Assembly: GCA_045837725.1 (NCBI GenBank)
Contig: JBEWZL010000030.1
Span: forward strand, 372,001 to 436,000
Reading direction: 5' to 3'
Length of the DNA stretch: 64,000 nt
DNA from: Vermamoeba vermiformis
Lineage: Eukaryota
The notes below the pieces were generated by a model. The model was not told the DNA's origin. It saw only the letters and a program-made list of their open reading frames with translations, and searched no databases. Below are positions 8,647 through 49,375 of this stretch, piece after piece; within the stretch, counting starts at the first letter, position 1; every line of letters starts with the position of its first letter. A program made the translations under genes and the position numbers.

Positions 8647-8881
8647 GGCATAAATACTGGCTGCCAATAAAAATACAACAATGAACTGCCGACAGCTTGT
8701 GCACCCAATCACAAAATCAAGCAATTTAGTATGGTAAATTTCTAGTTGGACAGTACGCGTGGACCATATACGGAACCGTCATATCATTATACGTCAAAAA
8801 TGAATGACTTGACCGTGGAAGTTCACTCTTTATTTTAAAGATTTTCGTTGGCGCGAAAAATCCAAGACGCGTGACACGTTG

Positions 8882-10756: not shown

Positions 10757-11156
10757 TTTCGAAACTAAAGGTTCGCATATTAAAATAAATTGTGGCTGTC
10801 ACCTTTATGACTAAAAAAAGTTCGATCGTGATCAAAAATCAATTTTATTGCAGGACTGTGGTCAATCAGGAGTTAATTATTATTGACAACTATTGTATCA
10901 TCTTCACACAGACTACGCCTAGAGGTTTGGTGATTGGCTCAAGAATCACCAAAGACTTTTCTGAACAAATTCTTTCAGATGCAATCGACTGAAATTCAGT
11001 CGCGCTTATCTGCAATGTCATAAACAGCTCTTCATGCACTTGTACTTCCATTTACCTTAGTAGGCATATTATGAATAAGTTGTGGTTGTTTTTGCGCGGT
11101 AAACGATAATTGGTGGAGATTCTCCTGACGGAAGTTTAAAGCGATGTTTTCCTTTA

Positions 11157-12991
11157 TTAGTAAGTGAAGTCAAGGCCAAGTGAGTGTGTAACGGGTACTA
11201 CAATGTTCATCAGACCCGCGAACTCATGTTCGGACAATTGTTTGCACGTGCTCTTCGTGCCGTTCAACACAACCTCCAAGGATCTGCGACGCTCATTTTC
11301 ATCTTGTTTGCTGCCAGAGCTACTGTTATCTTCATTATTACTATTGTCTTCGTTATTGCTATCTTCTCTATCATTTTCATCTTCGTCTTCATTACTATTG
11401 TCTTCTGTACTACAACCAGCGGATGCACCACCATTTTTATTTCTTTTTTCGGCCAGATCCGGGTTTATTTTTTTCTTAGTTTTGAGAGATTTCAAGGTAC
11501 TAATATACTTCTCAATCTCGTCGAATATAGGTTTCATTATGGACGGTCTATATTGAATTGTTTCAATGTGTCGATCATCTACAAAATTCCATTGCCGATC
11601 ACTCCAATCAACGTGCATACCAGTTACATAGCCTTAAATGGACATTAGTTTATTGCTATGCGTAATAATAGCGTCATATAATTAAATTGTCAGATGCGAT
11701 CCACTTTTTGACTCGTACCTGTATCGCTGCAATGGAGTTCCCAACCTTCGTTATCAACATCGTCGTTACCCTGTAATATATTTAAGCGTTATTGTTTGCG
11801 CAAAACGAATTTGAAGAGGCACTAGCATTGACTTAAGAAATCGGATGGGGTTTTGAAGGCTGATCTGTCGCACTTACGTATCGAATACTAATAGAATTAT
11901 TTCCTTCGACTCCAAACTCAATTTTTTTGAAAAATTTCTTCACTTTAAGCGCACACAACGCACATTTTAGTCGCTTGATCTGCGATCGGCAAAAAAAGTC
12001 GATTAGAAAGTTATATTCGTCGTATTTAATATCAAATAGATCTTTCATACCAATATATCATCTAGATGGTCCCAATCTTCGCGGGTTTCAGTGTCAAGAT
12101 CCCGATCTTCATCGATTATGTCCTCCGCATCCTTCTTTTTGTGTTTTTTTTTGTTCGAACCGCTGTCCGTATCTTCATTCTTATATAAGTATCCTAATTG
12201 GTGATTATTGACTTTAATTTCGAATAAGGCTTTGTCCAACGCAAACCCGAATAGCTTATCATTTTCATATTTCTTTATAATTTCTTCGAATTTGGCTTTA
12301 TCTGTCATATTCATTATATTTAATAGCCTAGCAACGAGTTTATCGAACTTTGCGCGGTCGTTGAGCTTTTTTTGAATTGTTTGAATTTTTTCTTTAGAGC
12401 TGCCTGGTGAACTGCTGAAAAGTTAGTCGCGTTTATGATTAGTATATATATTTATAACGTGCCTCCACGTATATTTGGAGTTTTTGATGGCATCGCCGTT
12501 GCCTTTAATTGTATACTTTACTGAGGTTTTTTCTTTTACGTGATTCAGATCAAACAACTGAAAACGAACGATTATGCTTTTCTCGAACATATTCGATACC
12601 TAAATAATTTATATAAATAGTTGTAAGCAATAAATCATTTGTTATTGATTACCAGCGCATTGATCTGTTTGCACGTGCACGCCAAGGATTCAAGCGTCGT
12701 GTTAGGGCACTGCAATATTATATTTTCAATAATTTCAGCCGGGAGAACGTCCTTTTAGTAAATACAAATAATTTAATTAGTACAGTCATCTAAAAATTAT
12801 CTAAAATCCCAAATAAATTTGGGTCAATTTTTACAGGCACAATAATTATGCATTCGTTTATAAATGCACGATTTAATTAATTCGGCGCAAAAAGGAATTT
12901 TTCTGGTGCATTCCGGATGTGACAGGTCGAAAGGCCCTTCAATTACCTGGAACAGCTTTCGCTTTTTTGCCGATCTAGTATCTTCTTCCAT
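11157..12991 (-). CDS. F-box protein, tandem family copy 3
   Basis: MEEDTRSAKKRKLFQ, DVLPAEIIENIIL..LACTCKQI, IKRLKCALCA. Confidence 0.8.
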
Positions 12992-13996
12992 AAAGTAATG
13001 TTTAACAAAAATGTCCTTGTGCTGTGGTGCGTTTTTAAACAAAATCAACTTTTGTTGTCTTAACTAGTTAAAGAAGTCTCATGCATGTTGGGAGTATCTA
13101 CAAAGACTGATCACTGTGCCACAGATCCTTGAGGAGACTTCTCAGTGCTTTCAAGTCGTGTACACACCACTCACTTGAGCCTCTAATTGACACAGGTGTA
13201 TGATTGACAGCTGTCACAGGAGAGGCATTGACATGTGATTTTGGTTCAGCAACATTGGTGCCAATTGACTTGGCCAGGTGTTGCTCTGATTTGACAGGTG
13301 TCACACTGTTTCTGTTTACTCCATTTTCATACTTGATGGGCTTGTCTTTGACACGTGTCTTTTTGTTGACATACAATTGCATGCTTACTCAGACTGGAGT
13401 GCTGAGACGATTGATTTTCACTGAATATGACCACCAATTGACATGTCACATCACACACTTCAGTTTGACACCGCTGATGACCCTGGTAGAGTGTGGCTAT
13501 TGGGGCAATGACAAAGGTAATTTTGTATCACGACCAAATTTGGCAACAACTCTTAACTGAACACAAAGGCCACCCCAATGACCTTCTATTCACTTTCCTA
13601 ATAGGAGAGGCAAGTCACCTGATGAGCTGCCAAACCCTGCTCTTCAATAGCAAATTACTCACTTTGGACAAATGAAGTTCACCATGAAGAACTTCCCGTA
13701 CAGCTATCAGTCGAGTGCAGGCAGTGACACTTTGACATGTGTCACTGAATACGACAGCATGCAGTGTTATGACCCACTGATGACACTTGTCATTTTCGGA
13801 TATCTGATGGATCAGTTTGTGACAAGCGTCAAAACCAATCAAGCACTCAAGGCTGCAACTGATCATGTGACTGACCAGGAAGAGTATTATTTGGTCATCA
13901 CTGCATTCCAATATGCCACCAATACAACTCCAACATGCAACCCCCCTGTGAAGTATCACCAACATGGAGACCCACTACCAATCTTATTGATGTAAG

Positions 13997-14835
13997 TTAT
14001 ATTAAAAATGTAAAGTTTACAGTTATCAGGAAAGGTTTGTTTCTATTGGCCAGCTCACTTCCCAGTGCCGAGTCAAAATAGACAGGTTCAAGAATATCCA
14101 GCAACTGATCCAAATGTTCATCAGACAATTCTTTGTACACATATTCACCATTGTTTAAAACAATCCTAAGTGTTCTATCAGGATATCTGTCATTATTTCC
14201 GGAATATTCTTCTTCATCATTGCTGTGATAGTCATCAGACCTATTCGCCACAAAGTTAAAATCAGAACTAATTCTTTTAAAAGAATATTGTTGCAGTTGC
14301 TACCAGCTTATATCCAACTTACTTAGGTCTATTATTCAGTTGTGTCAACTTCAGTTGTGCAAACTTAAGTTGTGCCAACTTCAAAGTTTGATTCCATCCA
14401 GTGACTTCATTGAAGATATGTTCAATCAGTGCAGATTGAAATTGCTGCTGATTATGATATTTTAAAGAATTTCGATGAATATCATCTTGAAAGAATTCAC
14501 AACGAGTGATCACAAGCCCTTAAATATCATATTAGACAAATCAAATATCATTATTTTAATATACCTGAATCATGGCACTCAATTTCCCAACCATTTCCCT
14601 CACTGGAGTACTGGTAATGTAATGTGTTATAACAGTCTAAACATTACTATTAGAAGCAAATCATGCTTACGTTTTTGATAACTATGCTTTTCTTTGCATT
14701 GGGAAGCGGTGGTATGTTCTCGAAGAACTTTTTTATCTCAAAGGCACATAAAATACATTTTGCTCGCTTGATCTACAAGTAAAAATTAGAGTGGTATCGA
14801 AATATTTGAGTATTTGTACCATATTGTCGTTCATT
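13997..14835 (-). pseudogene. F-box family copy 4, 3' half (separated from its 5' half by the CACTA element)
   Basis: IKRAKCILCAFEIKKFF exon and family C-terminus; removing the element restores AWRK-MNDNM across the ATT duplication. Confidence 0.8.
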
Positions 14836-25725: not shown

Positions 25726-28420
25726 AGACAAGTATTACTGTTCTACATGCCGCCGAGGCTTTCCGTTTCCAGGAGAGCTGCAGCGACATCTCAATACTTC
25801 CATTCACGAGACAGAAGAAGGCAAAAATACCCCCGAAAATACATACAACTGCACTGAACACAAATGAAATGCACTAGAAGACACGATCGGTAAGATACTT
25901 TGAAAATTATTTAATAAATAATAATTTTATTTGTAGAAATGGAATATCAAAGTGGTACACCCACAACTGGTATGAAAAAAAAGGTTGCATCCTTCATTTT
26001 ATAATTTTCTGCAGATTTGAGTTTCGTTGACGAAGAAATTGCTGAACCGACCTCCATCATCACAGATAATCTCTCACCTTGGGCTCTTATTCATTGGTTT
26101 TGCATTCAAAAAAGTATTCCTGCTTCAGACGAGCTACAGCTGCTTAGGCTACTATCCAAACCTGTGTTTCACCTGAATTCAGCTCCACCGTCAATTGCTG
26201 ATATACGAAGTGAGCTACAACGCTCAATTCCTCAAATATCGTACAAGTCCATTGTTTGCCGAAAGAAAGGGAAGAAAGAAAGCAACGTCAAACCTTTGAA
26301 CATTTTAAACAATACTGGATACCAAGTTGTGAATGTTTACAGTATTCGAGACCACCTTGAACTATACCTAAAAGATCCAGTTCTTAGTGGCAGCTTGATC
26401 TTTAAGCCAGTTAGCAATGCAGTTGGATACTCTTCGTTTGTTTCGGGACAGTACTTTCACAATATCGTAGAGCTGATCCCTATTGGTGCACTGCCGCTAT
26501 GCCGTAAGTATCGTAAACACATACAAATTGCTAAAGACATCAGTTGAATTGTACTGGGATGACACCGGCATCTCAAGCAAGAAGAAGTGTGGACCAATAT
26601 GGCTCGGGATCAGCAACAGTGATTCATCAATAAAGCGAACTCCTGAATCAAGAATGCTCATTGCTGTCATGCCGCCAGAAACAGATCTTAGTCCCGTTTT
26701 AGAAGAACTAGTTTCACAAATTCAACAATTGACGGAAGTCGATTTTTTTTGCGCAAGTATGAATTCTGTGGTCCGATTTCATTGCTTGCTTTCGTTATTG
26801 CTAGGTGATTCTCCTGCTAGCAATTATGTGATAGGTATGAGCAATGGCATTTCAAAACTATTCCTAACAAGATTGCAGGTTTACGTGCACCAACGTGTAA
26901 TCAACCATGTCGCATTTGCCACACAGAGGCTACACAACTTGGATTGATTCCTGAGGTTGACCTTCATACAGTTGAAGGCGATCTATCAGAACAAGTAAAA
27001 TGGCCTCAAAGGACGAAAAGAGCAATGATGGATCTGATTAACGAAGCTCACATTGGTATTTTACCAAATATGGAAGCAGAGCTCAAAGCCAAAGGTTTAG
27101 CTTACTATACGGTAAAGTCGTATTCATTGGTTCTCATTTTGCATAACGTAATTCTATTTACAGAGCCCTTTGTGGGAAGTCGATTTCATCAATTTGTTTA
27201 CGCAGTCACCGTACTGTTTACTTCATAACGAATTTCTTGGATTGGTTCCCATCCACATGGACTTGACCTTTGCCGCTATTAAGAGTAAAGAAAATGGCAT
27301 CACTATTATGAAAGAACTTGGAGAACGAGTTGCCAAATTCCCTGCTTTTAGTCCGCTACCAAAGCTAAACGATGATATTGAACTTCGAAAAGGATGGGAT
27401 GGCAAATCGTATACCTCATTTTATCGAATGGCAGTAATTGTATTTCGAGACTTTCTTAAAAATGAAGAGCTGCGATGTTGGTAAGTAAGCCAATTTATTA
27501 TTTTACTATCATTAGCTCACAAAACCAGGCTGTTACATTGCCGATACCTGAGATACTTACATAAATCTCTGCTATCTGAAAGACAGTTGCAAAACCTGAT
27601 GGCAACGTACTGGGAATGGAAGAAATTGTTCATACAATGCTATAAATCACCAGAGCCTTCAAAACAAAAGATAAGTATTAAAAATATGCAATTCTTGAAT
27701 TTGCATGTCGGCGAACATTGGTATTCTACGATCAAAATGTTCGGTGTCCCAGCAGAGTACAGCACGCAACACTGGGAAGCCTTACACCAATCCGTCAAAA
27801 GAAAAGAAAAGAAGTCTAACCATCTTCAGCCCTCACTAGACATCTCCCGTATGATAATAGAAGAGACTTCAATGCAAAGAGCGTTGGGAACAATTGAAGT
27901 ACGTAATTGTCTTTGATTAAACCTTTCATCAATTGCTTTAGGATTTTTGTGCATTAAATACCACAATCAATCGAACGGTAATTGGGTCAATTACAGTTTA
28001 CAATAAGCAAAAGAACAAAGCGGAAGATATTCGGCAATTTCTTCAGGAACAACTTTTGCAAGGTACCTATGCCTAAATGATTACTTAAATTACTAATAAG
28101 ATTCAGATGACGTACAGTTTCAATTGTACAATTCGGCGCAGATAGGTTCGACAAAGTTAAGCAAAGGGGACTACTTCAGCACTGGACACAAAGAAAACAA
28201 AAGATTTGGGGAGGTAAACGCCATCGTCTCTGTTGCCAATGTAGTTTATATTATTGGATATCTTTACAAGCACGACTATCGTTCTCTTGATGCAAAAAGT
28301 GAGATGTACACTGTCAGCAAAACTGACTCGTGGGCATTATTTACTGCTAATGAAGCCAATCCAGAACAATTTGTATCAATCGATGACAACCTAACTCTAG
28401 TAAACTTTTTTTTCCGTTGA
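25718..28420 (+). CDS. CACTA/Plavaka-like DDE transposase with N-terminal C2H2 zinc finger
   Basis: YYCSTCRRGFPFPGELQRHLNTSIH; LYWDD..GPIWLGISN; LLGDSPA; PCRIC; PYCLLHNEFLG; NLH..H..IKMFG..YSTQHWEALHQ. Confidence 0.88.
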
Positions 28421-28540
28421 TTCGAAATGTCTCTACAAATTTATCGAGATTTATCTCTTGTGATCGCAATCAATAGAGGCGAAACGAGATTAATCTCAGT
28501 TGTGAGCTACTATTGTTAGTTTCACTGATTGAGACTTCAG

Positions 28541-28576
28541 TCACAACCGAGATTTGCGAGATTAAAATTGGTAGTG
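28541..28576 (-). repeat. Right TIR of the CACTA element
   Basis: TCACAACCGAGATTTGCGAGATTAAAATTGGTAGTG followed by ATT. Confidence 0.95.
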
Positions 28577-29477
28577 ATTTTGCGCCAAGCAAGTTTTTGA
28601 TTTTGTTCATGGTGTACATCAGTAGTAAAATAATCTGGTTCTTCAGTTGTAAATGTGTATGCCAAAAACTGATCATCAACATGGACTTTGATTGAAAAGT
28701 CCTCAAATGAAAACTTGACTAGTGGATCAGACCAATTTTCGACCATTTTTTTCGTTAATTCTGCTGTATCTGTCATTTGCAATATTCCTAATAATTTCTT
28801 GGAAACTTCATCGAATTCATAGGTGTTCTCAAGCTTTCCAAAGATATTGTTACTTTGCTCATTGCGTGTACGCCGGGTCCTTAAATTACATTATATTTAG
28901 TTGTTACTTCATAGATAAATAATATTATTATTTTGCGTACGAGTCTTTATTGCAGCAACCTGAACTTGTTTCTCCTTTTCGAAAGGCCTTGAACCACCAT
29001 TTATAGCTTTCGCGCTCATCGTTCCAAGACTCCTTGCTCCATTCGATCATAATGTAAATTTTCCTATCAAACGGCTTCCACGCCTAATTTAATTGTTACG
29101 GACCATTCCAAAGTAATCTGTATTGTTATATAATATTTTTTGATTTTTAAATAATTCAATTTCAACGGAATAAATTTTACAACAAGCGACCTTCTTACGT
29201 ACTAACATGTTGATTATTTTACATGTGCTTGCCAAAGATTCGAGGGTCCGCGTATCGTGGCATAATTCATAGATTTTGTCAAAAATCGCTAATGGGAACA
29301 TCTCCTAAATTAATAAAATATTATTAGAATAATCATCATATTTTCTTATTATTTTAATTGTTTAATTGGGCTCTTTCGAGATGACAGGATCTGCCGTCTT
29401 ACCTGAACGGGAATTTCGTCTGATTCATTAGTGATAATTTTGTCTGATTCATTAGTGATAATTTCGTCTTTCTCCAT
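28577..29477 (-). pseudogene. F-box family copy 4, 5' half
   Basis: MEKDEII..., EMFPLAIFDKIYELC..LESLASTCKII (F-box); MTDTAEL exon runs into the TIR. Confidence 0.8.
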
Positions 29478-29711
29478 CAGTATTATATAATTTAATGGCA
29501 GCTTCGTTCTTCCAACGTTTTTGGCAAGCCTCAAATTTTTTTGCCGCCAAGCCGTTGCATTGCGTAGGGATCCTTTCTTAAGGACAGGTCATAAAAACGG
29601 TACACAAAGCCTTGGTCTAAAGTCTGGTTTGCAACCTGCCCCGCCGATCTGATTGATCTGTCAACGGAACAATAAAATGGCTGGCAGGAATAGATTAAAT
29701 TGTATTATTAA

Positions 29712-32700
29712 TTAATTATACGACAAATCAATCGTCTCGCTAAGTGATGTCATTACAGGCGCAAGAATTTTCATCAATTTTGCGAATTGTTCTTTAGACA
29801 GCTGGCCGTACTTGTGTTTACGGCCTTTCAATACTATAGTCATATTCCGGACCTGTTCGTCCTTGTCTTCATGCTCGCTATTATTATCTTCACTATCATT
29901 ACTACTGTCAGCGTTTTCTTCGTCTTCGATCCGTTCGTTGTTGCCAATTTTTTTGGGATCCAGTTTTTTCGTATTGTTGTTAGCCTTAGAGGCCATAAGT
30001 GTACTATAATAGTGTTCTAAGGCTATAAATATTTCTTTCACTTGCGAAGGTTTAAATTGACGCGAGGCCTTGTACTGATTATCTTGCGAGCCCCAATGTT
30101 TGTCTATAATTTCAATTTGCGTAGCTTTTACATAGCCTTAAATAGTATAATAGTATAGTTAGTGTTCAGTATTGATTTATAGGTCTTAGGATAGTGCTTT
30201 ATATGCGTACCTGATTCATCGCATTCGAGATCCCAGCCTGCATGTTCGTATTCATCCTCGCGCTGATGAAATAATCATTAATAAATTAAAAGTATTATAT
30301 AATGTAGTGGCGTATATAATAAACGTAAAGTTTTGGTTAGTTTGGCAATCAACGAGATTTAGCATAGGCACACGTAAACAAATCTGAATCTGATCTGGTT
30401 CGATCATTGAAAATGCTTCTCGATAACTTACGTATTTAATACTAATGCTATTAGATACTTCATTGTAGTAATTGATGTTAAAGAAGAAAGGCTTGATTTG
30501 AAAGGCACATAAAGCGCACTTCAATCGCTTGATCTGCGGAAAAAAAGTCAGTCTAATTGCTTAATTTTGAACTCGCTCCAGTACTATTAACTATCATATA
30601 TAATAAAATACCATTTTTTCATCGAGACGGTCCCAATCGAGCTCTTCATCTGGTTTTTCAACGTGCAGATCTTCTTGATCACATCCGTGAAGTAAAGTTA
30701 TTGGCAATGTTACGTTTCTGGTACACATCTTACTATTATAGTATGATATCAAAATACAATCATAGTAGCTTTTAGCAATAATATACAGATTAAGACCGAT
30801 ATCGACCTACAGTTCGATCTAAATTTTATTTGCCAGCCTCCTGGATGCGATCCATACACAGCTGAAGGCATGCTACCGCTCATACCTTTAGGACAATGTA
30901 CTCGTGAGAATCAGTATGCCGCGGCAATCGATGGTACGTCGATCTCACGCCAGTAAATTCAGATTGCACTCCAAATTTGGAAAAATCCGGAAATCAAAGA
31001 AACTTCTTTGTTCGACAATACGAATATTTAATAATAAATACCGCTATCACTAACGTATTTCTAATATAGCTGGAGCAGCTGCAGTACTTTTCTGCGATTT
31101 CGATGCACCCGAAATTCATGGTAGAAGATCTCGCATTCCTCTCAGTCAATCTCCGCTTGAGATTCCTGTTGTCTTGGTAAGTGTCCAACACTAATATTTG
31201 AAGTATGACACCTGTCACGCTAACTCTACCTTCTAAGGTGTCAAAACCGGATTACTTTAGGCTCAAGGATCTTCTCGCCCACTCACCGTACTTGACGTTG
31301 GAAATTACTCCTGGTGCGTAGAAATTCTGCTAAATAATAATATAATTTTTAAAAGCTACGTACCGAGATTGTTTTTAATGACAATTATTACAGGCGTCAG
31401 TTTGTGGCATCAAAATATCGCGTACACATGGTGGTTCATCGCATTGAACGCTGTATTCTTTGTATTTTATCTCTTGCTTCTCGCGCTCGTGATCTACAAG
31501 TTCGTTCGAAAAGTCAAAGCGACTGGCTTTATCTGGAACATCAGCTTTGTTTATTTGTTCTTTCAAGCGGTATTTTGCATTTGTACGTCTATGTAACCTT
31601 TATTATGTATTTAGTTTTGGTCTAACGTTTCACTCGATTTCATTTCAGTGATGATCGTTCGATGGATAGATCCGCTTTTGACTTGGGGAATATATAGCAC
31701 TGTTATCGACGTATTTATTGACACGTGGCCCGCTAGGTGGTCGTGTATCCATTTCATACGTTGCGCTTATCCGTGTTTAATCCACGTTTAATATTTTAAC
31801 TTTTCCTTTACTTTTGTTATTAGTCGTAGCGCTGATGCTGATGGCGTTCTTCTGGTTCGAAGTCATCAATCAGTTCGCGGACACAAAAGTACAAGCGTTC
31901 TTGTCCAAAAAGTAAGTATTTCATAAAACTTGTTCGCGTACTGACTTTTTGATCAGAATGCAGATTCCGTTCTGGATACTCGGTGGTATTATTATAGTAC
32001 TACCATCGATTAATGCCATACTATTGATCTACATTACAATTCTACCGCTTTTCGTTGCGCTGGGAGCCGTTTCGTTGGCTACTGGCATGACCGTCGCTTG
32101 TTTCTACATCATTGTCGGTACGTTGTTCTACTGTATATTAATATTAACATTTGTATTAATGAACGGTATAATTGATAGCCGTAAAAGCGTTGGAGATTAT
32201 TAATCGATCCGAGCAAATGAACGCCGATAGTAAACCTCGATTAGATAGTCTCACGAAGGTATTAAAATACCACAGTCGTATATATATTAATATTAGAGTA
32301 TTTAGAGCCGAATATCGATCATTATCTCGACAATTATTGCATGTATTTATCCTCCCTGCGCTTTCATCTTGCGTTATTACATTATCTACAAGAGCTCGAT
32401 CTTCGCGCTAGCAGATATATATGTAGAGTCCGTATTATTAGGTCTTATTACCTTCATTCAAGTCTGGTTCATGCCGGATAAACTTCCATCCGGATCTGGT
32501 AACCATTTGTAATACTACGAGAATTATTGACAATGGCACAATGGAGTAAATTAATTACGATTATTTTAATAACGGCCGCAAGGAAGACAAATAGAATACG
32601 AGCTAATGACAGTTTCGCGCTCTAAATAATTACAAGATTATTTTAAAAATCTCCAGTATGTGATGAATCGTGGGTCGCGATTCAGTCGCTAATTAATAAT

Positions 32701-33980
32701 GACCAATTTTAATGTTTTACCTTTTATGTATTATTTGATATAAACAACACCGTTCATTACAAGTAAATAACTATCCTGGAGCAGCTGCCTCTAATGTACT
32801 ATTTTTGACTGTCAATTATAAGCAAATTTCCGATAATTTAATTAAAGCCTAATAAGGCTGTTTAGTTTCAGTTTAGGCTAAAATAGTAGCAGTTAATAAA
32901 TGACCACTAGGCCGTGTTATTTATTACATATGTGAGATGCAGAATCACCATAGTCTATTGTTTTCGACTGTCGTAGTGCTAGTTGCTGTCACATCCGCAA
33001 GCCGTATCATTTTTCCAATCGTACCGTAAGTGAAATATAGAATAACATACGTAATATTTACTCATATATTCATTGTACAGCGATCCTGAGTTCAATACGC
33101 CCGCTCTAACAAATGGATTTGTCGGTGGACCATCCGTATTATCTTCACTATTATATCTTCTATATTTATAACTGATTTTTTGCTCATTTACTGTAATATC
33201 AATTGAAAGTTCGTCCGTAGCCAAGCTGAAAATTGGTTCGCCTCGGCAGATGCAAAGAATTTCTTGGAATCTTTTTGGCTTCGTCATATTCATATAATTT
33301 ATAAGTGATTGGCACATTCTATCAAATCGATCGCGATCGCTAAGCTTTGTTTTGCTGGATTCAGTTTTTTCTCGCGAATAAGCTGGCGAACTAAATTAAA
33401 AAATTCTGGTTAGCAATTTCAATAGGTCCTATACATAATAATATTACAACGTACTATTTTGACTTCTTATACTGTTTAGTGGCGTCACCATTGCCTTTGA
33501 TGGTGTATTCAGCCTCGCAGGTGGTTTTATCTTCTCGCCAATTAAATTTAACGCTAATTTTCTTTTCAAATATTCTAGATACCTAATTACATATTAACAT
33601 TAATACGAATATATTGTTATTACGGGCCCTGTAATTTAATCGTTCGTGTTTTTTTGCTTACCAAAGCATTGAACTGTTTACACGAGCACGCTAATGATTC
33701 GAGTGTTGTCGTATTAGTGCAATAAGACAGAATATTCTCAATCATTTCTGCGGGAAGTGATTCCTAGTATCAAAATAATTAAGAATATTTAATAATAGTT
33801 CATTATTTTGTTTTATAATAAATATCACATCGTTCTGTAAATATTAAGTAGATTTATGTCGTTATTAGTGACGTTTATTTTTAATAATTGGTTGGTGCAG
33901 ATTTGGATGCGGACAAACTGAGGCACAGTTACCTGAAATAGCTTTCGTTTTTTCGAAGCTCGAACATCATTTTCTTCCAT
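29712..33980 (-). pseudogene. F-box family copy 5, interrupted by a 2.45-kb insertion (30689-33130)
   Basis: MEENDVRASKKRKLFQ, ESLPAEMIENILS..LACSCKQF at 33.98-33.66 kb; EDLHVEKPDEELDWDRLDEKM and IKRLKCALCAF resume at 30.68 kb. Confidence 0.8.
30689..33130 (+). pseudogene. Circularly permuted copy of the PA-domain membrane receptor gene (3' part 30689-~32510, then promoter, then 5' part from ATG 32937 to 33130)
   Basis: Colinear with the 42574-44694 paralog but split at GFVGG|KVIGNVT; flanked by CATCCGT at 30682-30688 and 33131-33137. Confidence 0.85.
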
Positions 33981-33996
33981 CGTATAAAATACAAAC

Positions 33997-34557
33997 GTGT
34001 TGGTACAGTTGGTGCGGTCAGAGAATAGCACCAATTTTGTCACACGTGTTTTTGTTGCTGGTTCTTTTACCGAACAAATCAGAGCTGTATTAAAGGAAGA
34101 ATTGCAGCTCATTAAAGTTCAGCTCTCTACTCTCAACGAAAAGGTCGATAAAATCGAACTCCAGCAAAAAATAATGTAGGATTCGGATTTATTAATTATT
34201 CTTTATTAATTTTAAAATTCAAGGATGGCCAAACTGAGCAATAGTTTGAAGGGTAAAAACGAGCCGCTTGAAAAAGTCCCCATCGTTGATGCAGATGGCA
34301 AAGAACGGATCGTTGATATGGAGTATCCGACAATTGCGATGCTGATCGTCGCTGAGAACGAGCAAATACCAGGCACGGAAATGACTAATAACTGGAATGC
34401 AACAAAAAGCTTGAACTTGATCAGAGAGTATGACCCTGGCTATGCTACGGATGAAGAAACTAAAGTAATGTCCGCAAAACGTAGGCTTAAGCTAGTTCAA
34501 TGCTTAGGGGTATCTCCTTCTCAAATTAATTTAGCAGCAACTACCTATTATAACTGA
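33997..34557 (+). CDS. Small coiled-coil protein with a Mug135-C-like domain (start uncertain)
   Basis: Coiled coil IRAVLKEEL..LNEKVDKIE, intron, then PLEKVP..YPTI..LI..YDP..RRLKLVQCLGV. Confidence 0.45.
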
Positions 34558-34712
34558 GGTAGCCGCCATTTTACTACTTACAAATTTCTAGATTTGTTTA
34601 AAACATAAATTCGAATAGATCGACAACGAGCAATGCAACCAATATTCGATCAGGTCTATGAAACATCGCATGCTAGATTCGAACGATATCCGAACGGATA
34701 CAACACAACGTA

Positions 34713-34913
34713 TTGCCAAACAACCCGATAGTATGGGCAACGGACGGATCCAAACGAGGTGAAGTTGCAACCACGGCAGTGGTGTCAGATCAAGCCACGT
34801 ACAAACCCCGAATACCCGAACAACAGTCAATTGCAAGAGCAGAGGCATACGAAATCCAAATAAACTTAGTCAACAATAGGAACATCAATATAATATCTGA
34901 CTCTACAAATTAA
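34713..34913 (+). mobile_element. RNase HI fragment of a non-LTR retrotransposon (remnant)
   Basis: WATDGSK...QSIARAE...NIISDS matches the RNase H D-E-D motif order; truncated. Confidence 0.65.
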
Positions 34914-35163
34914 ACATAAGTTGACACGTGTCAAGGTGACATTCGACGGACGAGTGCTCGATCGGATCGGATTGTGCGCATTGGAACTGCTTCCCGAACT
35001 TTCGAATTGAGGGTTGACAAAGGCAGGAGTGGCAACGAGTCCTAGAAGTACCGTGCAGTTAGTAACCGTATGTAAGCTTCGTAACAATTGGTAATAACAT
35101 AAAACAGTGACGGTGAATCTTAAACTTTTGAAATTTCAGGTTTAAACGTACCATTAATTAGCA

Positions 35164-36788
35164 CTAATCGTGAGCAAAGCTTAGTCCATGAATCTGACTC
35201 GTTAAAGGTTTCAAAATGGTCATCAATCCTTTGAGATTTTTCTTCGAAAAAGTGTACGTTGGTTTGCTCTCGAGAGCGAATCTGAGCTGGATCTCGCTCT
35301 GAGCATCGCATCCAGCGGTTATTGTAACTTTCCTAGTCGCCGAGCTATGCGGGGTAGATGTATTCTGCTTAATAGGCGCGATATATTTTTCAATATCGGC
35401 GAATAAGGCTCGTACAAGGGATGGTCGAAGTTGAACTGAAGCGGATCGACGAATACTTTTTGGGTTGTACAAGTTTTCATTGATATCGTACCAAAGAGCT
35501 TTAACAATACCTATTGATATTTAATTAGCATTATAATCAAATATAAATTAGTTTTTGTACCAGATGTGCTGCACTGAAAATCCCATCCGCGATCTCGAAA
35601 CAGTTCTCGGCCTCGTGGACAAACAGTCGACTATAAATATGATTAAACAATTATTATTTACCAATAATTAACTTACGTATTCGATTGAGAGCTCTTTATC
35701 AGCTTGTTTTTTATATTCTGCCGCAGTCAGATAAAAATTTGTAACTTCCGCAACTATGACAGTACATTTTAATCGTCGAATCTGCTAATATATATAACAT
35801 CGTTATTATACGTTCATACATACAGTGTTATTTACAATAACGCACCGAGTCATCGAGATTACTGCTCAAGTCTGGGACTGCAACAGTATTATGCTGATCT
35901 GCTTCATCGGTTACTTTTTTCACTTTTTTCTCCTTCTTCTTATTTTTGCAATAATTATATTCTATTTTTAGGTCATCAATTTGGACGTCAAAGCGTGTAA
36001 CATCGGCATCCGCGGTAAACTCGGACAAATGTTCGTTATCATACTCGTTGAGTAATTCTTCTAATTGAGCCTTGTTGGTCATATTAAACACTTGTAGTAC
36101 TCTTTTGTGCAGCTTAATAAACTCTTTGTTATTTTCAAACTTTTTTTGCTCATTTTTTAAATTTTCTTCTCGCAGTTCTCTGTCATTCCTGTACGTACAA
36201 TATATTTTAATAATACTATAATCATACTTATTATTATTATATATTGCGTACTTGCGAAGATATAGTTTGTGTTTTGTAGCGCTGCCATTGCCTGTTATCG
36301 TGCAACGGAATGAAGTTTCGGTTTCGTTATCGAATTCGCTTTCATACGTAACCGACGAGGTGCATTGAACGCTTATTCTTTTGCTAAATACACTATTCAC
36401 CTTTGCAATACGATGTGTGAGTTTAACGAGTTATAATTTCAAGTTGATCCTTCGTACCAAAGATCGGATCTGTTTGCACGTGCACGCGAGAGATTCTAGC
36501 GTCGTATTCGAGCACATAAAAATTACATTTTCGATCATTTCTATCGGAAGTGTTTCCTAGAATTAAGCAAATGAGCTGGTTTGTATTAACAATCGATTTT
36601 TAAGAGGAAATTTTAAAAAAATATTAGACGGCTTTAAAAATTCCCGCTAAACACTCGAGCGCTATCTATAACTATTTTTCAATAATTTAATAATTATTTC
36701 AGTAATTCTTGGTGGCTAGCCACGCAGATGTGCCAACGGGACTGACCTGGAACAACTTCCTTCTCTTAGGTGGCCTCTCTTCTTCCAT
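35164..36788 (-). CDS. F-box protein, tandem family copy 6
   Basis: MEEERPPKRRKLFQ, ETLPIEMIENVIF..LACTCKQI, IRRLKCTVIV. Confidence 0.8.
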
Positions 36789-36926
36789 TTTCTGGTTTTT
36801 TTTCTTCTTCACTAAATGAAAAGGCTTTCTGCGTGTGGTATTGCGGTCACCAGAAGACAGAAATGTGTGAGATCCTAATTTTTCAGTTTTCGTTGATTTG
36901 AAAGGTTTTTTTATTTCATAAGCCCA

Positions 36927-42573: not shown

Positions 42574-44694
42574 TCATGCGCTTTGATTAACAGTACCCGC
42601 TGTATTATCGGCATTCTCGGGCCTGCGCTGCGTATTACCAGATCCGGATGGACTTTTATCGGGCATGAACCAGACTTGAATGAAGGTAATAAGACCTAAT
42701 AATACCGACTCTACATATATTGCTACTAGCCCAAAAATGATGCTCTTGTAGACAATGCAATACCGCAGGATGAAAGCGCAGGGAGGATAAATACAGGCAA
42801 AAATTGCCGAGATAATAATCGATACGCGGCTCTAAATACACTAATCTTAATATATATGTACTATTGTGGTATTTTAACATTTTGATTTACCTTCATAAGG
42901 CTATCTAATCGAGATTTACTATCGGCATTCATTTTCTCGGATCGATTAATAATCTCCAACGCTTTAACGGCTATCAATCATTTAGTAATATATTAATATT
43001 AAGATAGTAGAACAACGTACCGACAATGATGTAGAAACAAGCGACGATCATGCCAGTAGCCAACGAAATTGCTGCCAGCCCGACGAAAAGCGGTAGAATA
43101 GTAATGTAGATCAATAATAAGGCATTGATTGCTGGTAGTACTATAATAATAGCAACGAGGATCCAGAATGGTATCTGCATTCTGATCAAAAAGTCAGTAC
43201 GCGAACTTTTATGAATTTCCAAATAAGGCAATACTCACTTTTTGGACAAGAACGCTTGTACTTTTGTGTCTGCGAACTGATTGATGACTTCGAACCAGAA
43301 GAATGCCATCAGCACCAACGCTGCGACTGAGAAACAGAAAGTTAAGGAATAAATATGAAAGAGTGAAGTTGACATCAGTGGGCAATGTATGAATATTATA
43401 TGAAAGGATACATGACCACGTAGCAGGCCAAGTGTCAATAAATGCATCTATAGCAGCACTATATATTCCCCAAGTCAAGAGCGGATCTATCCATCGCACG
43501 ATCATCACTGAAATGAAATCGAGTGAAACGTTAGACCAAAACTAAATACATAATAAAGGTTACATAGACGTACAAATGCAAAATACCGCTTGAAAGAACA
43601 AATAAACAAAGCTGATGTTCCAGATAAAGCCAGTCTCTTTCACTTTTCGGACAAACTTGTAGATCACGAGCGCGAGTAGCAAGAGATAAAATACAAAGAA
43701 TACAGCGTTCAATGCGATGAACCACCATGTGTATGCGATTTTTTTATGCCACATACTGACGCCTGTAATAATTGTCGTCAATATTGACCAGTCTGTAATT
43801 ATTTAAAATTGGAGATCTTTGGCAAAACAGTGTAGCTTATAAGTAGGATAGCCAATCTACGTACCAGGGGTAATTTCCAACGTCACGTACGGTGAGTGGG
43901 CGAGAAGATCTGTTAAACTTAGGTAATCCGGTTTTGACACCTTAGAAAGTAGAGTTAGTTTTGCAGCTGTCATATTTACGATATAAACACTAATGCTTAC
44001 CAATACAGCGGGAATCTCAAGTGGAGATCGGCTGAGCGGAATACGAGATCTTCTACCATTAAATTCGGGTGGATTCAAATCGCTAATAAGTACTGCAGCT
44101 GCTCCAGCTATATCATAAATACGTTAGTGATGCCGGAATTAATTTATATTGTCTAAATTCTGAGAGGAAAGAAATTCTGAGAGGAAAGAAATTCTGAGCG
44201 AAATTTTCCTAATTTGAAGCGCAGCCTGAATTATGAGCGCGAGCGACGTACCATTGACTGCTGCGGCATATTGATTCACAGGAGTGCAAGGTGCTATTGG
44301 TATAAAAGCAATCATGCCTTCAGCTGAGTACGGAACGCATCCAGGATACTGGAAAATAAAAATTTGTTAGATCGAACTGTAGGTCTTAGATTATAGCTAA
44401 ACTCTACCACTATCTTATCTTTTGTGCATAATACAATTGTAATATTTGTACCTGAAACGTAACATTGCCAATAACTTTGAAATCAGTGGGTCCACCGACA
44501 AATCCGTTTGTTAGAGCGGGCGTATTGAACTCAGGATTGCTGTACAATGAATACATTAGCAAAAAATGCATATTTGATATTTAAAAATGCTATTTGACTT
44601 ACAGTACGATTGGAAAAATGATGCGGCTTGCGGATGTGAAAGCAATTATTAGCAATACGACAGCAAAATGCAATAGACCATGGTGTTTGTACAT
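42574..44694 (-). CDS. Signal peptide + PA (protease-associated) domain + ~7 TM receptor-like protein
   Basis: GCVPYS..C..AGAAAVLI..IPAVLVS..L..VTLEI (PA-like) followed by repeated hydrophobic helices; multi-exon. Confidence 0.75.
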
Positions 44695-44927
44695 CTCTGT
44701 GTCACACCGTGACATTTGTTATAAATAACTCGGTCTAGTGTCAAGCGTCGTTTGCAAGCTGAAAGGGTGCTCTTTTTTGGCTAAAACTTAAAAAGGGCAA
44801 GCCGGATTAGGTTCAAGTTTTGTCTATTTATATTATCATAAATTTGCTCATAATTGGAACTCAAAATTATTTGTGTTCGTAATGTAAAATTTACTAGTGT
44901 GTAGATTTTTAATTTAAAAATCTGTTA

Positions 44928-45588
44928 CAGTCGGATTTAGTTATAATGGGTGCAATGTTTAAAAAAAAAAAGCTCTGCACCACGACGCAGGCGTCCTTAT
45001 GAAGGGATACTTCTGTTGTGGACAGAAGACCTATCATACTTTATTGTCCGTGGGGTATGGACCTGGTCGATAAGCTTCATAGACCACGGATCAATGCTGA
45101 AATCGGATCGGTACTCCCATTAAGGGCATTGAAGCGTACAATGCCCTCTATAATTTATTTCTATTCATCACTCAAGCACCTGAGCAAGGCCACTCCTCAC
45201 GTTTAATTTAGTGGCGGTGGAAGAGATTTTAAATATATTTATGTATATGTTGAGACCAGTGCAGTGAACCTATGCTCTTGCCCAGTAATTTTAAATAATT
45301 AGAGAGAACGCCGCAATGACTTTCGCGCGTCAATCGGTCAAACTAATTCTCTATTTGCCTTCAAAGGCGATCTTTTGATATGGAAAATTGTGCTTCGTAT
45401 TCATAAATTTGTCCGACTGACAATGTGCTCGTCATTTTCGCGGGCAGTTTTGATTCGCAAGACTTATTGCAGTGAGAAGTTTTCATTTAAACGAAAAATT
45501 CTCGAAAGAGCGATTGAAAACGAAATATTTAGAGATTTCAAAAGCTTGAAAAGATTTCAATTTTGCCCATTATAATTAAATCCGACTG
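44928..45588. mobile_element. Non-autonomous Tc1/mariner(pogo)-type MITE, 661 bp
   Basis: 23-bp TIR CAGTCGGATTTA(G/A)TTATAATGGG; TA TSD at 44926-44927 and 45589-45590; element absent at the homologous position (~32630) of the permuted paralog. Confidence 0.9.
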
Positions 45589-46252
45589 TAATATTTGAGC
45601 GCGAAGATAATTACCTCGTATTCTCTATGCCTTCCTTGCCAACCATTATTTAACTAATCGTTATTAATTTACTCTATTGTTAGACCATAGTTTAATTCGT
45701 GCAACGGCCTCGTGGTGTGGTGTATTTGTCTGTAATCGAAATGATAAAAACAAAGTAATTTGTTTGCTTACGAATGAAAGCACAATGCTATCGGCTTCTA
45801 TCATGATAGAGTAAATTATGTTGTTCGCTGTTTAATACGCTTAAAATAATGGTGAAGGCGAATCAGATCGAGTTTCTCGAGCAAATCTAGGTAACTATCA
45901 ATTAAGTAATTGTTTTTCTATTTACCCGACAAAATTATATAATTTATGTTCAAAATTTTAACGTGGAGCGTTTGGAAAACACGAAGCGCACAGATTAAAA
46001 GGGATGGCGAAAATACCTTCCTTGTTCAATGCCTGTTGCGTTTTTGATATCATTACACTCGTGCCCTCAAGGAGAAACGGACATTTACAATTGAGCCGAG
46101 CGCTTCTCGAATGAAAATAATCAATGTCCGGCCAAACGGAGAAATATAATTGACGCGAGCGAAGGATCCAAGGCCAAATACAAAAAGAAAAACAGATTAG
46201 TAGTCTATCATCAACAACTTAATAGCAACAACAAATACTACCACTGCAAATC

Positions 46253-47223: not shown

Positions 47224-49375
47224 TTATACTTCAACCGTTGAATTGGCAGTCGTAGTCGTATTTTCTTTGTCTCTCACTGAGTTCAGACTTTGAGATCCTT
47301 TACTCGTGGAAGACATTCCAGGAGTTTTCTCGGGCATGAACCAAACTTGAATGAAGGTAATAAGACCTAGCAACGTTGATTCTTCATATAGAACTGCAAG
47401 GCCGAAGAACAGATTGCCACCGACGATGTAGTAGCGCAAGATGAAATTGCAAGGCGGATAAATACAAGCGATGATTGTCGAGATAATGATCGATATCCGG
47501 CTCTAATAATATCATTAATAAATATATTTGGTTTAGATGCAATTAATTACGTACTCTCATTAAGCCTCTGACGCGAGATTTCTTGTCGACGTTCAATCGT
47601 TCGGATCTCTTTATGACTTGTAACGCTTTGACAGCTAAACAATAAATTATTATCACAAATATTATTCCTGGTAATATACAGCTCTATTCATACCAACGAT
47701 AATGTAGAAACAGGCGACGATCATTCCTGCAGCGAATTCAATGCCCAACAGGGCGACGAACAAAGTGCGAATGGTGAGAAAGCTCAATAGGATGGCATTA
47801 AGAGCGGGCAGCAAGATAATAACTCCGACGAGGATCCAGAACGGGATCTGCATTCTGATCGAAAAAAAGTCAGTACACGAACAATTTTCAATTTCCAAAT
47901 AAGGCAATGCTTACTTCTTGGACAAGAACGCTTGTACTTTTGTGTCTGCGAACTGATTGATGACTTCGAACCAGAAGAATGCCATCAGCACCAGTGCTGC
48001 GACTGAGAAACATAAAGTTAAGGAATAAATATGAAAAAGCAAGTTGAATCAGTGGGCAATGTATGAATGTTATATGAAGGATACATGACCACGTAGCAGG
48101 CCACGTGTCGATAAATGCATCAGCCATTGAGCTAATGATGCCCCAAGTCAAGAGCGGATCGATCCAACGAACGATCATCACTTTGAATCAGTTAGTAATG
48201 CTCGTAATCATGATATGAAGGTACTTACATATACAAAATACTGCTTGCAAGCCTAAGTAGACGAAGCTAATGTTCAAAATGAATCCGGTCGCTCGAACTT
48301 TTCGGACGAACTTGTAGATCACGAGTGCCAATAACGCCAAGTAGAATAGGCCGTATAGGATATTCAACGTGATGAACCAACCTGTGAAGCCAATATTTTT
48401 GTGCCATTCGCTTACGCCTATGCATGTCATCGAGATTAGTATCTTCTATAAATTTAAATCGCCAAGTTTACGAATAAAAGTTTATATCGCTCGATAAAAG
48501 AGCAATTACCTGGAGTAATATTAATTGTCACATACGGCTCAGTTTTGTTAACAATCATGTCTCTGAGCTTGTAATAATCTGGACCCGACAAGAAAAGTCG
48601 TCAGATTAGCAGCTGCATTCAATATTGTCGAGTACTATGACTTACGATGACTACAGGGATATCGAGTGGCATATTGCTCAACGGAATGCGGGATCTGCGT
48701 CCAACAACTCCGGGCACATCGTAATCACTGAAAATAACGCCGGCAGCTCCCGCTACACATAAAAACAAGTCAATCGTTAATATTACATACGTTCATATAA
48801 AATTGTTATTGTATCAATTAAACGAAATAAAGGCCCGGAGTTAGAAACGCCGATTCTAAGTTTCCCTTTTAAAGAATAAATTGCCAAAAATACGAACCTT
48901 CTTTCGCCAATTCAAATTGATGCTCACGACCGCAATGTCCGATAGGAATAACTACTATCATGCCCGCAGCGGAAAAAGATTCGCAGCCAGGGATCTAGAT
49001 CAGACGATAAACTTAGTTTAAAATTTTAAAGATGACAACCTTTCGAAATCAATCGATTCAACATTGTAATGCAAAAATTTGATATGAAAGTCGATCTATA
49101 TGCCATTTACCGTACCTGCAACGATACATTGGCAGTGACAGAAAAGTCAGTAACACCACCGACAAATCCGTTCGTCATGACAGGCGTATTCATTTCCGGC
49201 CTTATTGTTATACGATTAGTAACCATATGATATCATAATCAAATCAAGTTTGTCTCGATAATTCTTCGACTTACATTCCAGGCGGAAAAACATACTGGCT
49301 GGCAGATGCGACATTGAACAGAACCAACGTTACAAAAAATAATAGAACAGAATGACCTACACGCATTTTGCTCAT
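47224..49375 (-). CDS. PA-domain ~7 TM receptor-like paralog
   Basis: Same exons as the 42574-44694 gene (TPVMTNGFVGG, WIDPLLTWG, FFWFEVINQFADTKVQAFLSKK, TFIQVWFMP). Confidence 0.75.

Follow-up and report, generated by a model that had tools for sequence, protein, structure and literature searches.

Within the window, that is, the whole 64,000-nucleotide stretch of Vermamoeba vermiformis DNA that was analysed, an exon of an F-box gene contains a 2.4-kb copy of a membrane-receptor-like gene in which the two halves have changed places. The host gene (minus strand, 29715–34118) was delineated by Pfam, exon-wise tblastn, open reading frame (ORF) maps and alignment with P0001, a homologue on a public contig. 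Its exon pieces before the insert are located at 33828–34118, 33623–33763 (the F-box), 33454–33582 and 33138–33395, and those after the insert at about 30607–30681, 30255–30560 and 29715–30137. The minus strand of 33623–33763 scored 26.8 bits for PF12937 (cut-off 24.3) and 25.6 bits for PF00646 (cut-off 20.5) in Pfam, and the host exons matched six paralogues in the window in exon-by-exon tblastn. The recipient site, an F-box exon, is unrelated to the insert.

P0001, which is a homologue of the host and not a proven allele, aligns to 33287–33132 and 30677–30564, its identity to the host being 88% upstream and 82% downstream of the insert. In P0001 the host exon is uninterrupted, and exactly 5 residues are present where the host carries the two flanks plus the insert, a spacing that fits to within 1 nt. 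Since the exon that was hit is uninterrupted in P0001, the insertion is derived. Beyond the insert the host exon continues on the minus strand; in agreement with the sequence-only reading, joining its two parts cleanly would leave the frame off by 1 nt. The downstream frame is real, because it aligns with both the window paralogue F1 and P0001.

The linear reference for the insert is paralog A (minus strand, 42574–45745), the nearest intact member of the gene family, which is located 11 kb from the insert and encodes 443 aa in 11 exons (44694–42574). The upstream region of A carries a MITE-like insertion (44925–45591) with 26-bp terminal inverted repeats and TA-type flanks. Hydropathy analysis indicated an N-terminal signal-like segment and about 6–7 membrane segments. 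Pfam assigned no named domain to the exon pieces, which yielded three to four weak DUF matches far below the cut-offs (E, 0.17–8.7). The PA domain of Pfam was not detected in single-exon or ORF translations even at E values of up to 10; the domain would span exons 3–5, which we take to resemble the PA pattern. The label “PA receptor” used in the sequence-only reading is thus not confirmed. The ESM Atlas provided no usable match for the family, and none of the 19 word-sharing candidates for exon 6 among longer proteins was significant. A profile of exon 11 built from the four window copies gave 5 matches at E ≤ 0.001 among 1.84 billion representatives, all of them fragments of 74–91 aa. The closest relative in the protein searches was P0002, the one protein matched by the exon-9 ORF (70% identity); it was rejected as the donor of the insert, being a relative from another genome. 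A gene-conversion tract and two arrayed gene families are also present in the window.

Architecture of the rotated insert

The sequence at 30694–33131 corresponds to one complete unit of the gene family, in which the order of the blocks is rotated relative to that of paralog A. In blastn of the region against the window, 30694–32502 matched A from 44478 to 42635 on the minus strand, with 80.4% identity over 1891 columns. The remaining blocks were defined by blastn and junction alignments: 32521/32538–32634 matches the upstream region of A from 45698 to 45587 (80.6% over 98), 32800–32844 matches A from 44869 to 44825, and 32901–33131 matches A from 44743 to 44489 (77.7%). Because of these blocks, the order in the insert is assigned as the 3′ part, the upstream region and the 5′ part; in detail, exons 2b to 11 come first, an upstream stretch of ~430 nt follows, and the unit ends with the start codon (ATG), exon 1, intron 1 and exon 2a. 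When the MITE-like insertion of A is excluded, the insert is colinear with the reference unit, with the 3′ block before the 5′ block on the same strand. The outer ends of the insert fall at A 44478 and 44489, and only 10 nt of A (44488–44479) are without a counterpart. For independently placed ends, the chance that both fall at most 10 nt apart on the 2449-nt unit is ~0.9% (21/2449). The order proposed in the sequence-only reading, running from the middle of exon 2 through the 3′ end, the upstream sequence and the ATG back to exon 2, is thus borne out by the blastn and junction alignments against A.

The 3′ part of the inserted gene (plus strand, 30694–32505) was modelled from blastn to A and from GT..AG boundaries. 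Its introns lie at 30721–30836, 30934–31069, 31177–31237, 31314–31393, 31583–31648, 31745–31823, 31912–31956, 32118–32178 and 32259–32305; every one is GT..AG, and the open frame comprises 375 aa. The upstream region, consisting of promoter and 5′UTR (plus strand, 32521–32936), was identified by homology and is colinear with the upstream region of A after removal of the 667-bp MITE-like insertion. The identity of 32495–32940 to A is 82.2% at 314 aligned pairs, over a span that includes the zone of the junction J1, described below, and the first bases of the ATG. The 5′ part (plus strand, 32937–33131) contains the ATG at 32937, exon 1 up to 33025, an intron at 33026–33080, and exon 2a at 33081–33131, which ends in ..GFVGG. 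All 10 introns are therefore kept as GT..AG introns, 9 in the 3′ part and 1 in the 5′ part, in agreement with the earlier statement that introns were retained, and the reading frame is intact.

The insert differs from A with a dS of 0.28 and a dN/dS of 0.32. The dS is 0.23 in the 5′ part and 0.29 in the 3′ part, and the two exon-2 pieces are 96.1% (exon 2a, 49/51) and 96.3% (exon 2b, 26/27) identical to A. No stop, frameshift or lost splice site was found across 1265 coding nt and 20 splice sites, and the divergence after insertion is bounded to about 1.2–3.4% under neutrality. The inserted copy thus looks young; as it is rotated, it is non-functional.

Junction J1 and the scars at the target site

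In the unit junction, J1 (plus strand, 32506–32520), the truncated coding end is joined to sequence ~430–470 nt upstream of the start codon. The coding homology to A ends at 32502–32505, and the upstream homology starts at 32521, possibly at 32506. The C-terminal tail encoded by the insert stops 18–33 residues short of the tails of A, B and C, and the stop at 32510–32512 is supplied by the joined sequence, not by the gene tail. Judged by the short tail, fused straight to upstream sequence, J1 is evidently not a natural gene end; it could be the point at which a circle closed, or a junction inherited from an earlier tandem duplication. Neither the insert nor J1 recurs elsewhere in the window, and the same holds for the tail and the far-upstream sequence of A.

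The heptamer CATCCGT was observed at both ends of the insert, where it had been reported before. The left copy (plus strand, 30682–30688) is host sequence and is followed by a 5-nt filler, GAAGT (plus strand, 30689–30693), which, according to the junction alignment and the P0001 spacing, has no counterpart in the gene family or in the host exon as reconstructed. The right copy occupies 33131–33137 (plus strand); for its first base and for the C before it, an origin in the gene is just as possible. Among 20,000 random pairs of window positions with the same spacing, 0.5% shared a word of at least 7 nt located within 13 nt of both junctions, a share that rose to 4.4% when flanks of 30 nt were allowed. 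A and B lack CATCCGT at the opening point in exon 2, despite the identity of 49/51 and 26/27 (to A) alongside. The heptamer, being absent from the gene family at this point, therefore comes from the host and was duplicated at the target. At the right junction, at most 1–2 nt (CC, 33130–33131) are common to gene and host. These comparisons indicate that the heptamer and the 5-nt filler constitute a micro-duplication scar, and not homology between a circle and its target.

The 7-bp target duplication (P about 0.005), accompanied by the 5-nt filler and the 1-nt discrepancy, also fits a staggered break that was filled in, or replicative repair. CATCCG occurs in addition at 32487 and 32992 inside the insert, neither of them at a junction. 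The latter lies within a 9-nt word shared with the left host flank, for which a rough 9-mer estimate gives a chance of ~7%; both occurrences were taken as coincidence. GTGAAG, formed by filler and neighbouring bases, matches the reverse complement of host sequence 6–12 nt to the right of the target, as would be seen if the filler had been templated by snap-back; a match of 6 nt is too short to carry this reading.

Routes to the rotated copy

The insert is wholly accounted for by homology to the gene and its upstream region. No terminal inverted or direct repeats, LTRs or Helitron-type ends were found on reading its end sequences, and Pfam detected no transposase, integrase, reverse transcriptase or recombinase domain when 118 of the 170 ORFs of at least 75 aa were scanned. 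These negatives agree with the earlier claim that no transposon was involved. Gene capture by Pack-MULEs, Helitrons or LTR elements resembles the present case in that a fragment of a host gene is relocated and flanked by a short duplication. The bona fide elements of the window are unlike the insert: copy C holds an LTR element with identical LTRs and a 5-bp duplication, and the MITE-like element has 26-bp inverted ends. Scans for other features gave no tRNA genes in the window and no Rfam families in 28000–36000. The yeast ARS consensus has 5 matches in the window, all of them outside the insert; this is a weak test, since the consensus is specific to Saccharomyces.

A circular RNA template can yield a rotated exon order, as in back-spliced, circRNA-derived pseudogenes. 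A retrocopy or any RNA intermediate is ruled out here by the 10 introns, the ~430 nt of upstream sequence, the ATG context and the lack of poly(A) at the insert. The insertion is a DNA-level event.

The most economical explanation, which we regard as probable, is that a one-unit DNA circle was opened in exon 2 and caught at a chromosomal break. A circular intermediate is the most parsimonious because the insert is rotated by one unit, keeps its introns and shows no transposon hallmarks, and because the host exon is continuous in P0001. The sequence-only reading had proposed a DNA circle integrated by microhomology-mediated repair; the circle stands at this strength, and the microhomology is not supported, CATCCGT being duplicated host sequence.

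We infer the free circle, its mode of closure and the repair pathway as follows. A segment of ~2.44 kb, which began ~430–470 nt ahead of the start codon and ended shortly before the stop codon, would have been closed into a one-unit circle, either by end-joining of an excised or copied fragment, creating J1 at about 32506–32520, or by homologous pop-out from a tandem duplication already bearing J1. The circle would have been broken once inside exon 2, with the loss of ~10 nt, and the linear molecule would have been captured by end-joining, in the opposite orientation, at a break in the acidic linker exon of the F-box gene. Repair would have left the 7-bp host duplication (8 bp with one ambiguous base), the 5-nt filler and the 1-nt discrepancy in the host frame. 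The outcome would be a dead F-box gene and a rotated gene copy. The donor would be a relative of paralog A, and not A itself.

Several points count against a circle, including the tandem partial duplication described below. Simple end-joining does not specifically predict a target duplication of 7–8 bp; the donor copy is not within the window; and the family array lies on the same chromosome as the insert, 10–24 kb away. According to the excerpted text of Takahashi and Innan (PMC7188851), proximity on the same chromosome is the setting in which nested rearrangements can mimic the pattern.

The best-surviving alternative, to which we give a distinctly smaller but real chance, dispenses with a free circle: a chromosomal tandem (copy, J1, copy) would have donated to the F-box gene a linear stretch from exon 2 of its first copy to exon 2 of its second, either through two breaks at one site or through template-switching repair (MMBIR or SDSA). 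Tandem partial duplications exist in the family, since a truncated copy, E′ (about 54760–53746, exons 1–7), lies ~250 nt upstream of copy C, and this arrangement, 20 kb off, makes a chromosomal template with the same linear order plausible. J1 itself is shaped like a segmental tandem-duplication junction, and micro-duplication with filler is also typical of replicative repair, as described in the excerpted text of PMC7450558. Against this, both ends of the donated stretch must fall within 10 nt of one position, the about 0.9% coincidence calculated above for independent ends, and no tandem donor was found within the window. Nor was a hairpin or unusual structure present at the exon-2 point or at J1 in paralog A, which served as a proxy: the DNA folds at these points gave z = +1.3 and +2.1, respectively, less stable than shuffles. 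The idea of a fragile site was rejected on the same folds.

Three further explanations appear highly improbable. The first assumes two or more independent events, with a 5′ fragment inserted first and a 3′ fragment later at its left edge, or a linear insertion followed by internal rearrangement. The region is rearrangement-prone, as seen from the LTR element, the MITE-like insertion, the gene-conversion tract and the two family arrays; this explanation nevertheless needs a second insertion exactly at the boundary of the first, with complementary donor breakpoints within 10 nt, odds that are argued to be extremely low in the excerpted text of PMC7188851. In addition, the two parts are similarly distant from A in both dS and exon-2 identity.

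The second, which we likewise consider very doubtful, is an assembly artefact, in which a chimeric join placed a piece of the tandem array inside the F-box gene. Arrayed multi-copy families are a classic source of misassembly. With an identity of only about 80% to the closest copy in the window, the insert is not a collapsed or mis-threaded A, B or C. Moreover, the host resumes at the same heptamer, the frame and spacing fit the uninterrupted homologue to within 1 nt, and a flanking micro-duplication is, in our judgement, not expected from a chimera.

Finally, it is scarcely likely that a circle joined the chromosome by one reciprocal crossover at a shared CATCCGT, through microhomology or a Crypton-type tyrosine recombinase acting in trans: an identical 7-bp word flanking a circle-derived insert is the product of such a crossover, and tyrosine recombinases usually have cores of 6–8 bp, but the donor would need the heptamer and the filler where A has 10–11 unrelated nt, producing a +1 frameshift and an in-frame stop in a constrained gene with an intact frame and adjoining exon-2 pieces 96% identical to A, and no recombinase domain was detected among the 118 ORFs scanned of the 170 with at least 75 aa.

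Comparison with known circle-derived insertions

The footprint of circle reintegration has already been described in cattle, yeast and human. In the excerpted text of PMC7188851, the block order “efghij-abcd” is given as diagnostic of duplication mediated by extrachromosomal circular DNA. The scars of the present insert (micro-duplication, small deletion, short filler and 0–2 nt of homology) resemble reported circle-derived insertions, comparable scars being described in the available portions of the reports on cattle and human (PMC7450558) and yeast (PMC3053389).

A wider reading, which we offer as speculation with little weight, is that a tandemly arrayed, lineage-restricted receptor-like family might be mobilised in the germline as unit-length circles that re-enter at staggered breaks, leaving duplications of 7–8 bp. 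Such mobilisation would represent a transposon-independent copy-and-paste route that makes family copies and knocks out other genes; the present locus would be its first base-pair-resolved single-gene example, and more rotated copies would be expected elsewhere in the genome. Germline re-integration of chromosome-derived circles is documented by a handful of cases, which come from cattle, from wine yeast and from a few segmental duplications in human and involve tens to hundreds of kb. If the circle is real, the present locus would add a gene-sized example, in which both integration junctions and the closure junction are readable to the base and which comes with an uninterrupted target homologue and a young, still-intact copy. 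It would also indicate that such events can both disperse copies from a tandem family and disable a gene unrelated to that family.

As far as the excerpted texts of PMC7188851 and PMC7450558 describe their cases, the present insert shares with them the rotated order (A-B/C-D to B-A/D-C), a non-homologous recipient, small indels and microhomology of 0–2 nt. Those cases involve segments of 20–130 kb or larger and no new coding copy, whereas a single 2.4-kb gene unit in an exon is found here, and they compare donor–recipient pairs directly, whereas the present comparison uses paralog A as a proxy. The 7-bp target duplication is a feature of the present insert, unlike the cases in these texts.

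For the colour-sidedness allele at cattle KIT (Durkin et al., 2012), the excerpted account in PMC7450558 describes serial translocation by way of a circle that was excised or copied in the germline, reopened at a different point and integrated elsewhere, with micro-duplications and micro-deletions as scars. In that account, hundreds of kb moved between chromosomes, with a phenotype caused via the carried gene; in contrast, the 2.4-kb unit would here have moved within about 11 kb or more of the family array, destroying both the copy and the host gene. For region B of wine yeast, the available text of Galeote et al. (2011, PMC3053389) reports integrated copies with a circularly permuted gene order, arising through non-homologous recombination with 2–3 nt of microhomology. 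Region B, a fungal precedent, is described there as a horizontally acquired segment of 17 kb that carries a functional ARS and integrated several times, whereas one integration is seen at the present locus.

Two minus-strand gene families in the window

The window is eukaryotic DNA with short GT..AG introns (45-144 nt), a GC content of ~34-49%, and Pfam matches to clathrin heavy chain, mitochondrial carrier, threonine synthase, short-chain dehydrogenase, and LRR and ankyrin proteins. Two multi-copy families, F-box proteins and multi-pass membrane proteins with a signal peptide, are each arrayed on the minus strand. The F-box family comprises the host gene of the insert (34118-29715) and the paralogues F1 (13060-11160), F2 (10753-8900), F3 (8652-7091), F4 (36914-35371), F5 (29304-28540), and F6 (14772-14000). 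These seven same-orientation members (7091-14772, 28540-29304, 29715-34118, 35371-36914) diverge fast, with at most 35% amino-acid identity to one another in the exon compared; the linker of each is acidic, and in each a ..W..LD.. motif is conserved ahead of an intron.

The membrane-protein family comprises copies A (44694-42574), B (~49375-47223), and C (53501-50110), and the truncated copy E' (~54760-53746), all on the minus strand. E' consists of exons 1-7 only and lies upstream of C, ~250 nt from its start; the two copies, ~70% identical with a period of 1261-1451 nt, represent an old partial duplication in tandem, so that a truncated copy followed by the next start does occur in this family. 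Paralog B has no AG at the intron-4 acceptor position used by A and the insert (~48590-48600, minus strand), and use of a later in-frame acceptor would make its exon 5 shorter; the gene may be in decay or spliced in another way. Copy C is divided between exons 7 and 8 by a 1338-bp LTR-type element (50957-52294, plus strand), which looks very recent; its two 152-bp LTRs are 100% identical with TGT..ACA ends, a primer-binding-like TGGTTCC.. follows the left LTR, a purine tract precedes the right LTR, and a 5-bp duplication, ACCAC, flanks the element. Its 324-aa ORF (51158-52129) had no Pfam match. An exon 11 profile built on the insert and copies A, B, and C, searched against 1.84 billion representatives, retrieved five short ORF fragments only and no annotated full-length relative, and the family seems lineage-restricted.

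Block order, internal junction, and age of the inserted copy

When the region was aligned to the window with blastn, insert positions 30694-32502 matched A 44478->42635 at 80.4% identity. Together with targeted alignments, the same search matched 32521-32634 to A 45698->45587, 32800-32844 to A 44869->44825, and 32901-33131 to A 44743->44489. These matches indicate that the insert is one unit that runs from exon 2b to exon 11 and continues through the upstream region, the ATG, exon 1, intron 1, and exon 2a, where 2a and 2b are the exon 2 pieces at its outer ends. These ends correspond to A 44489 and 44478, leaving only 10 nt of A without a counterpart. The gap in A coordinates (45591-44925) corresponds to 667 bp of MITE-like sequence that entered A and is missing from the homologous upstream sequence of the insert; with it excluded, 32495-32940 is colinear with the A upstream region (82.2% over 314 aligned pairs). 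The MITE-like sequence (44925-45591) has 26-bp terminal inverted repeats (25/26 matching) and TA-type flanks, and no second copy was found in the window. CATCCGT stands at 30682-30688 and 33131-33137, with five unrelated nucleotides (30689-30693) between the left heptamer and the gene. Every element of the sequence-only reading's description, a permuted gene flanked by CATCCGT, was correct.

At the internal junction J1 (~32506-32520), homology to the A coding sequence ends at 32502-32505, 8 nt short of the insert's stop codon, which comes from the joined sequence, and homology to the A upstream region begins at 32521, perhaps already at 32506. In the exon 11 alignment, the insert frame stops three residues past J1, whereas A, B, and C run on for a further 18-33 residues, indicating that J1 is a breakpoint junction and no natural intergenic region. 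It would mark the point where a circle closed or, alternatively, a segmental tandem-duplication junction at the donor.

The inserted copy has no stops, frameshifts, or splice-site losses. Its 3' part is modelled as an open 375-aa frame with nine canonical introns, and its 5' part is open from the ATG at 32937, across one intron, to 33131; A has the same 11 exons and encodes 443 aa. Identity to A is 88.8% in exons (1123/1265) and 81.3% over aligned intron positions, with 106 gap nucleotides. The dN/dS of 0.32 (dS = 0.278, dN = 0.088; 421 codons) indicates that most of this divergence arose while a functional donor lineage was under selection. Assuming neutrality from the insertion onward, the lack of stops, frameshifts, and splice-site losses bounds the age of the rotated copy at ~1.2-3.4% divergence, the range being set by the assumed indel rate. 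Set against this bound, the divergence from A indicates that A is not the donor; a surviving donor, if any, should be ~97% or more identical to the insert, and none was found in the window. Within a tract at ~31400-31680, positions 31521-31658 match A perfectly over 138 nt (end of exon 6, whole intron 6, and start of exon 7), while the alignment elsewhere is ~80% identical; this run probably reflects gene conversion between family members.

Host exon and the doubled heptamer

By Pfam, the exon split by the insert is part of an F-box gene; its downstream frame ..DQEDLHVEKPDEELDWDRLDEKM aligns with F1 and F2, indicating that the host's downstream continuation is real. The ORF that crosses the right junction, used as query, retrieved a single protein, P0001, which is 92 aa long and comes from a public contig of 27.9 kb. 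Its residues 1-52 match host 33287-33132 (88%) and residues 55-92 match host 30677-30564 (82%), indicating that the exon is uninterrupted in a close homologue. P0001 runs on into the counterpart of the next host intron and so was translated from genomic DNA; it could be an orthologue from a related genome or else a paralogue of recent origin. Five residues separate its conserved SEDN and EDLHV. Five codons from the host flanks need 8 nt on the right and 7 nt on the left, and a clean rejoin gives one nucleotide fewer. The target scar would most simply be read as 7-8 host nucleotides duplicated with one base lost, or as reflecting a 1-nt deletion that came later, or a homopolymer error.

The sequence-only reading inferred integration by microhomology-mediated repair, and a view of the heptamer as microhomology between circle and target does not hold. 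Neither A nor B reads CATCCGT at the opening point, while the exon 2 pieces that adjoin it match A at 49/51 and 26/27 positions, and a donor bearing the heptamer and filler there would be frameshifted, with an in-frame stop. For the same reason, a crossover at a donor-borne heptamer is highly improbable. CATCCGT is thus a doubled piece of host sequence. Among 20,000 random window pairs, a common word of at least 7 nt occurred within 13 nt of both junctions in 0.5%, and in 4.4% with 30-nt flanks allowed, which makes repair, rather than chance, the probable origin of the doubled heptamer. At the right junction, gene and host are ambiguous over 1-2 nt only (CC, 33130-33131). In the whole window, both strands, CATCCG occurs 32 times versus 19.3 expected, a count reached in 0/100 shuffles.

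Source of the insert

A circle cut once would yield a fragment whose two ends coincide. By our arithmetic, independently placed ends would fall within 10 nt on the 2449-nt unit with a chance of ~0.9%. All introns are present in the insert, no poly(A) was found at it, its end sequences as read contain no transposon ends, and the ORFs scanned (118/170 of at least 75 aa) encode no transposon enzyme domains. These results exclude both a transposable element and an RNA intermediate, in agreement with the earlier claim that no transposon was involved. The core of that interpretation, a circular DNA intermediate, is supported by the rotated unit and its coincident ends, and we regard it as moderately probable.

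In the main alternative, a chromosomal tandem donor could have been copied or cut at equivalent sites with no free circle. The E'/C duplication lies in the very array, and Takahashi and Innan (PMC7188851) warn that nearby multi-copy families may mimic the pattern; however, such a donor leaves the coincidence of the two ends unexplained, and DNA folds of the matching points in paralog A showed no structure-prone sequence at the breakpoints. We therefore consider it unlikely. The structure is real and well resolved, and misassembly, like insertion in multiple steps, has very little probability.

The circular intermediate has close precedents. As described in PMC7188851 and PMC7450558, the same rotated order serves to identify human duplications mediated by eccDNA, and the cattle KIT case, as relayed in both, is a further circle-type example. 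The scars of the insert (a small opening-point deletion, a short filler, and a micro-duplication) resemble those summarised in PMC7450558. PMC3053389 likewise reports for region B of wine yeasts a circularly permuted gene order, as in the insert, and integration with 2-3 nt microhomology. The insert thus adds a gene-sized case to an already described type of event.
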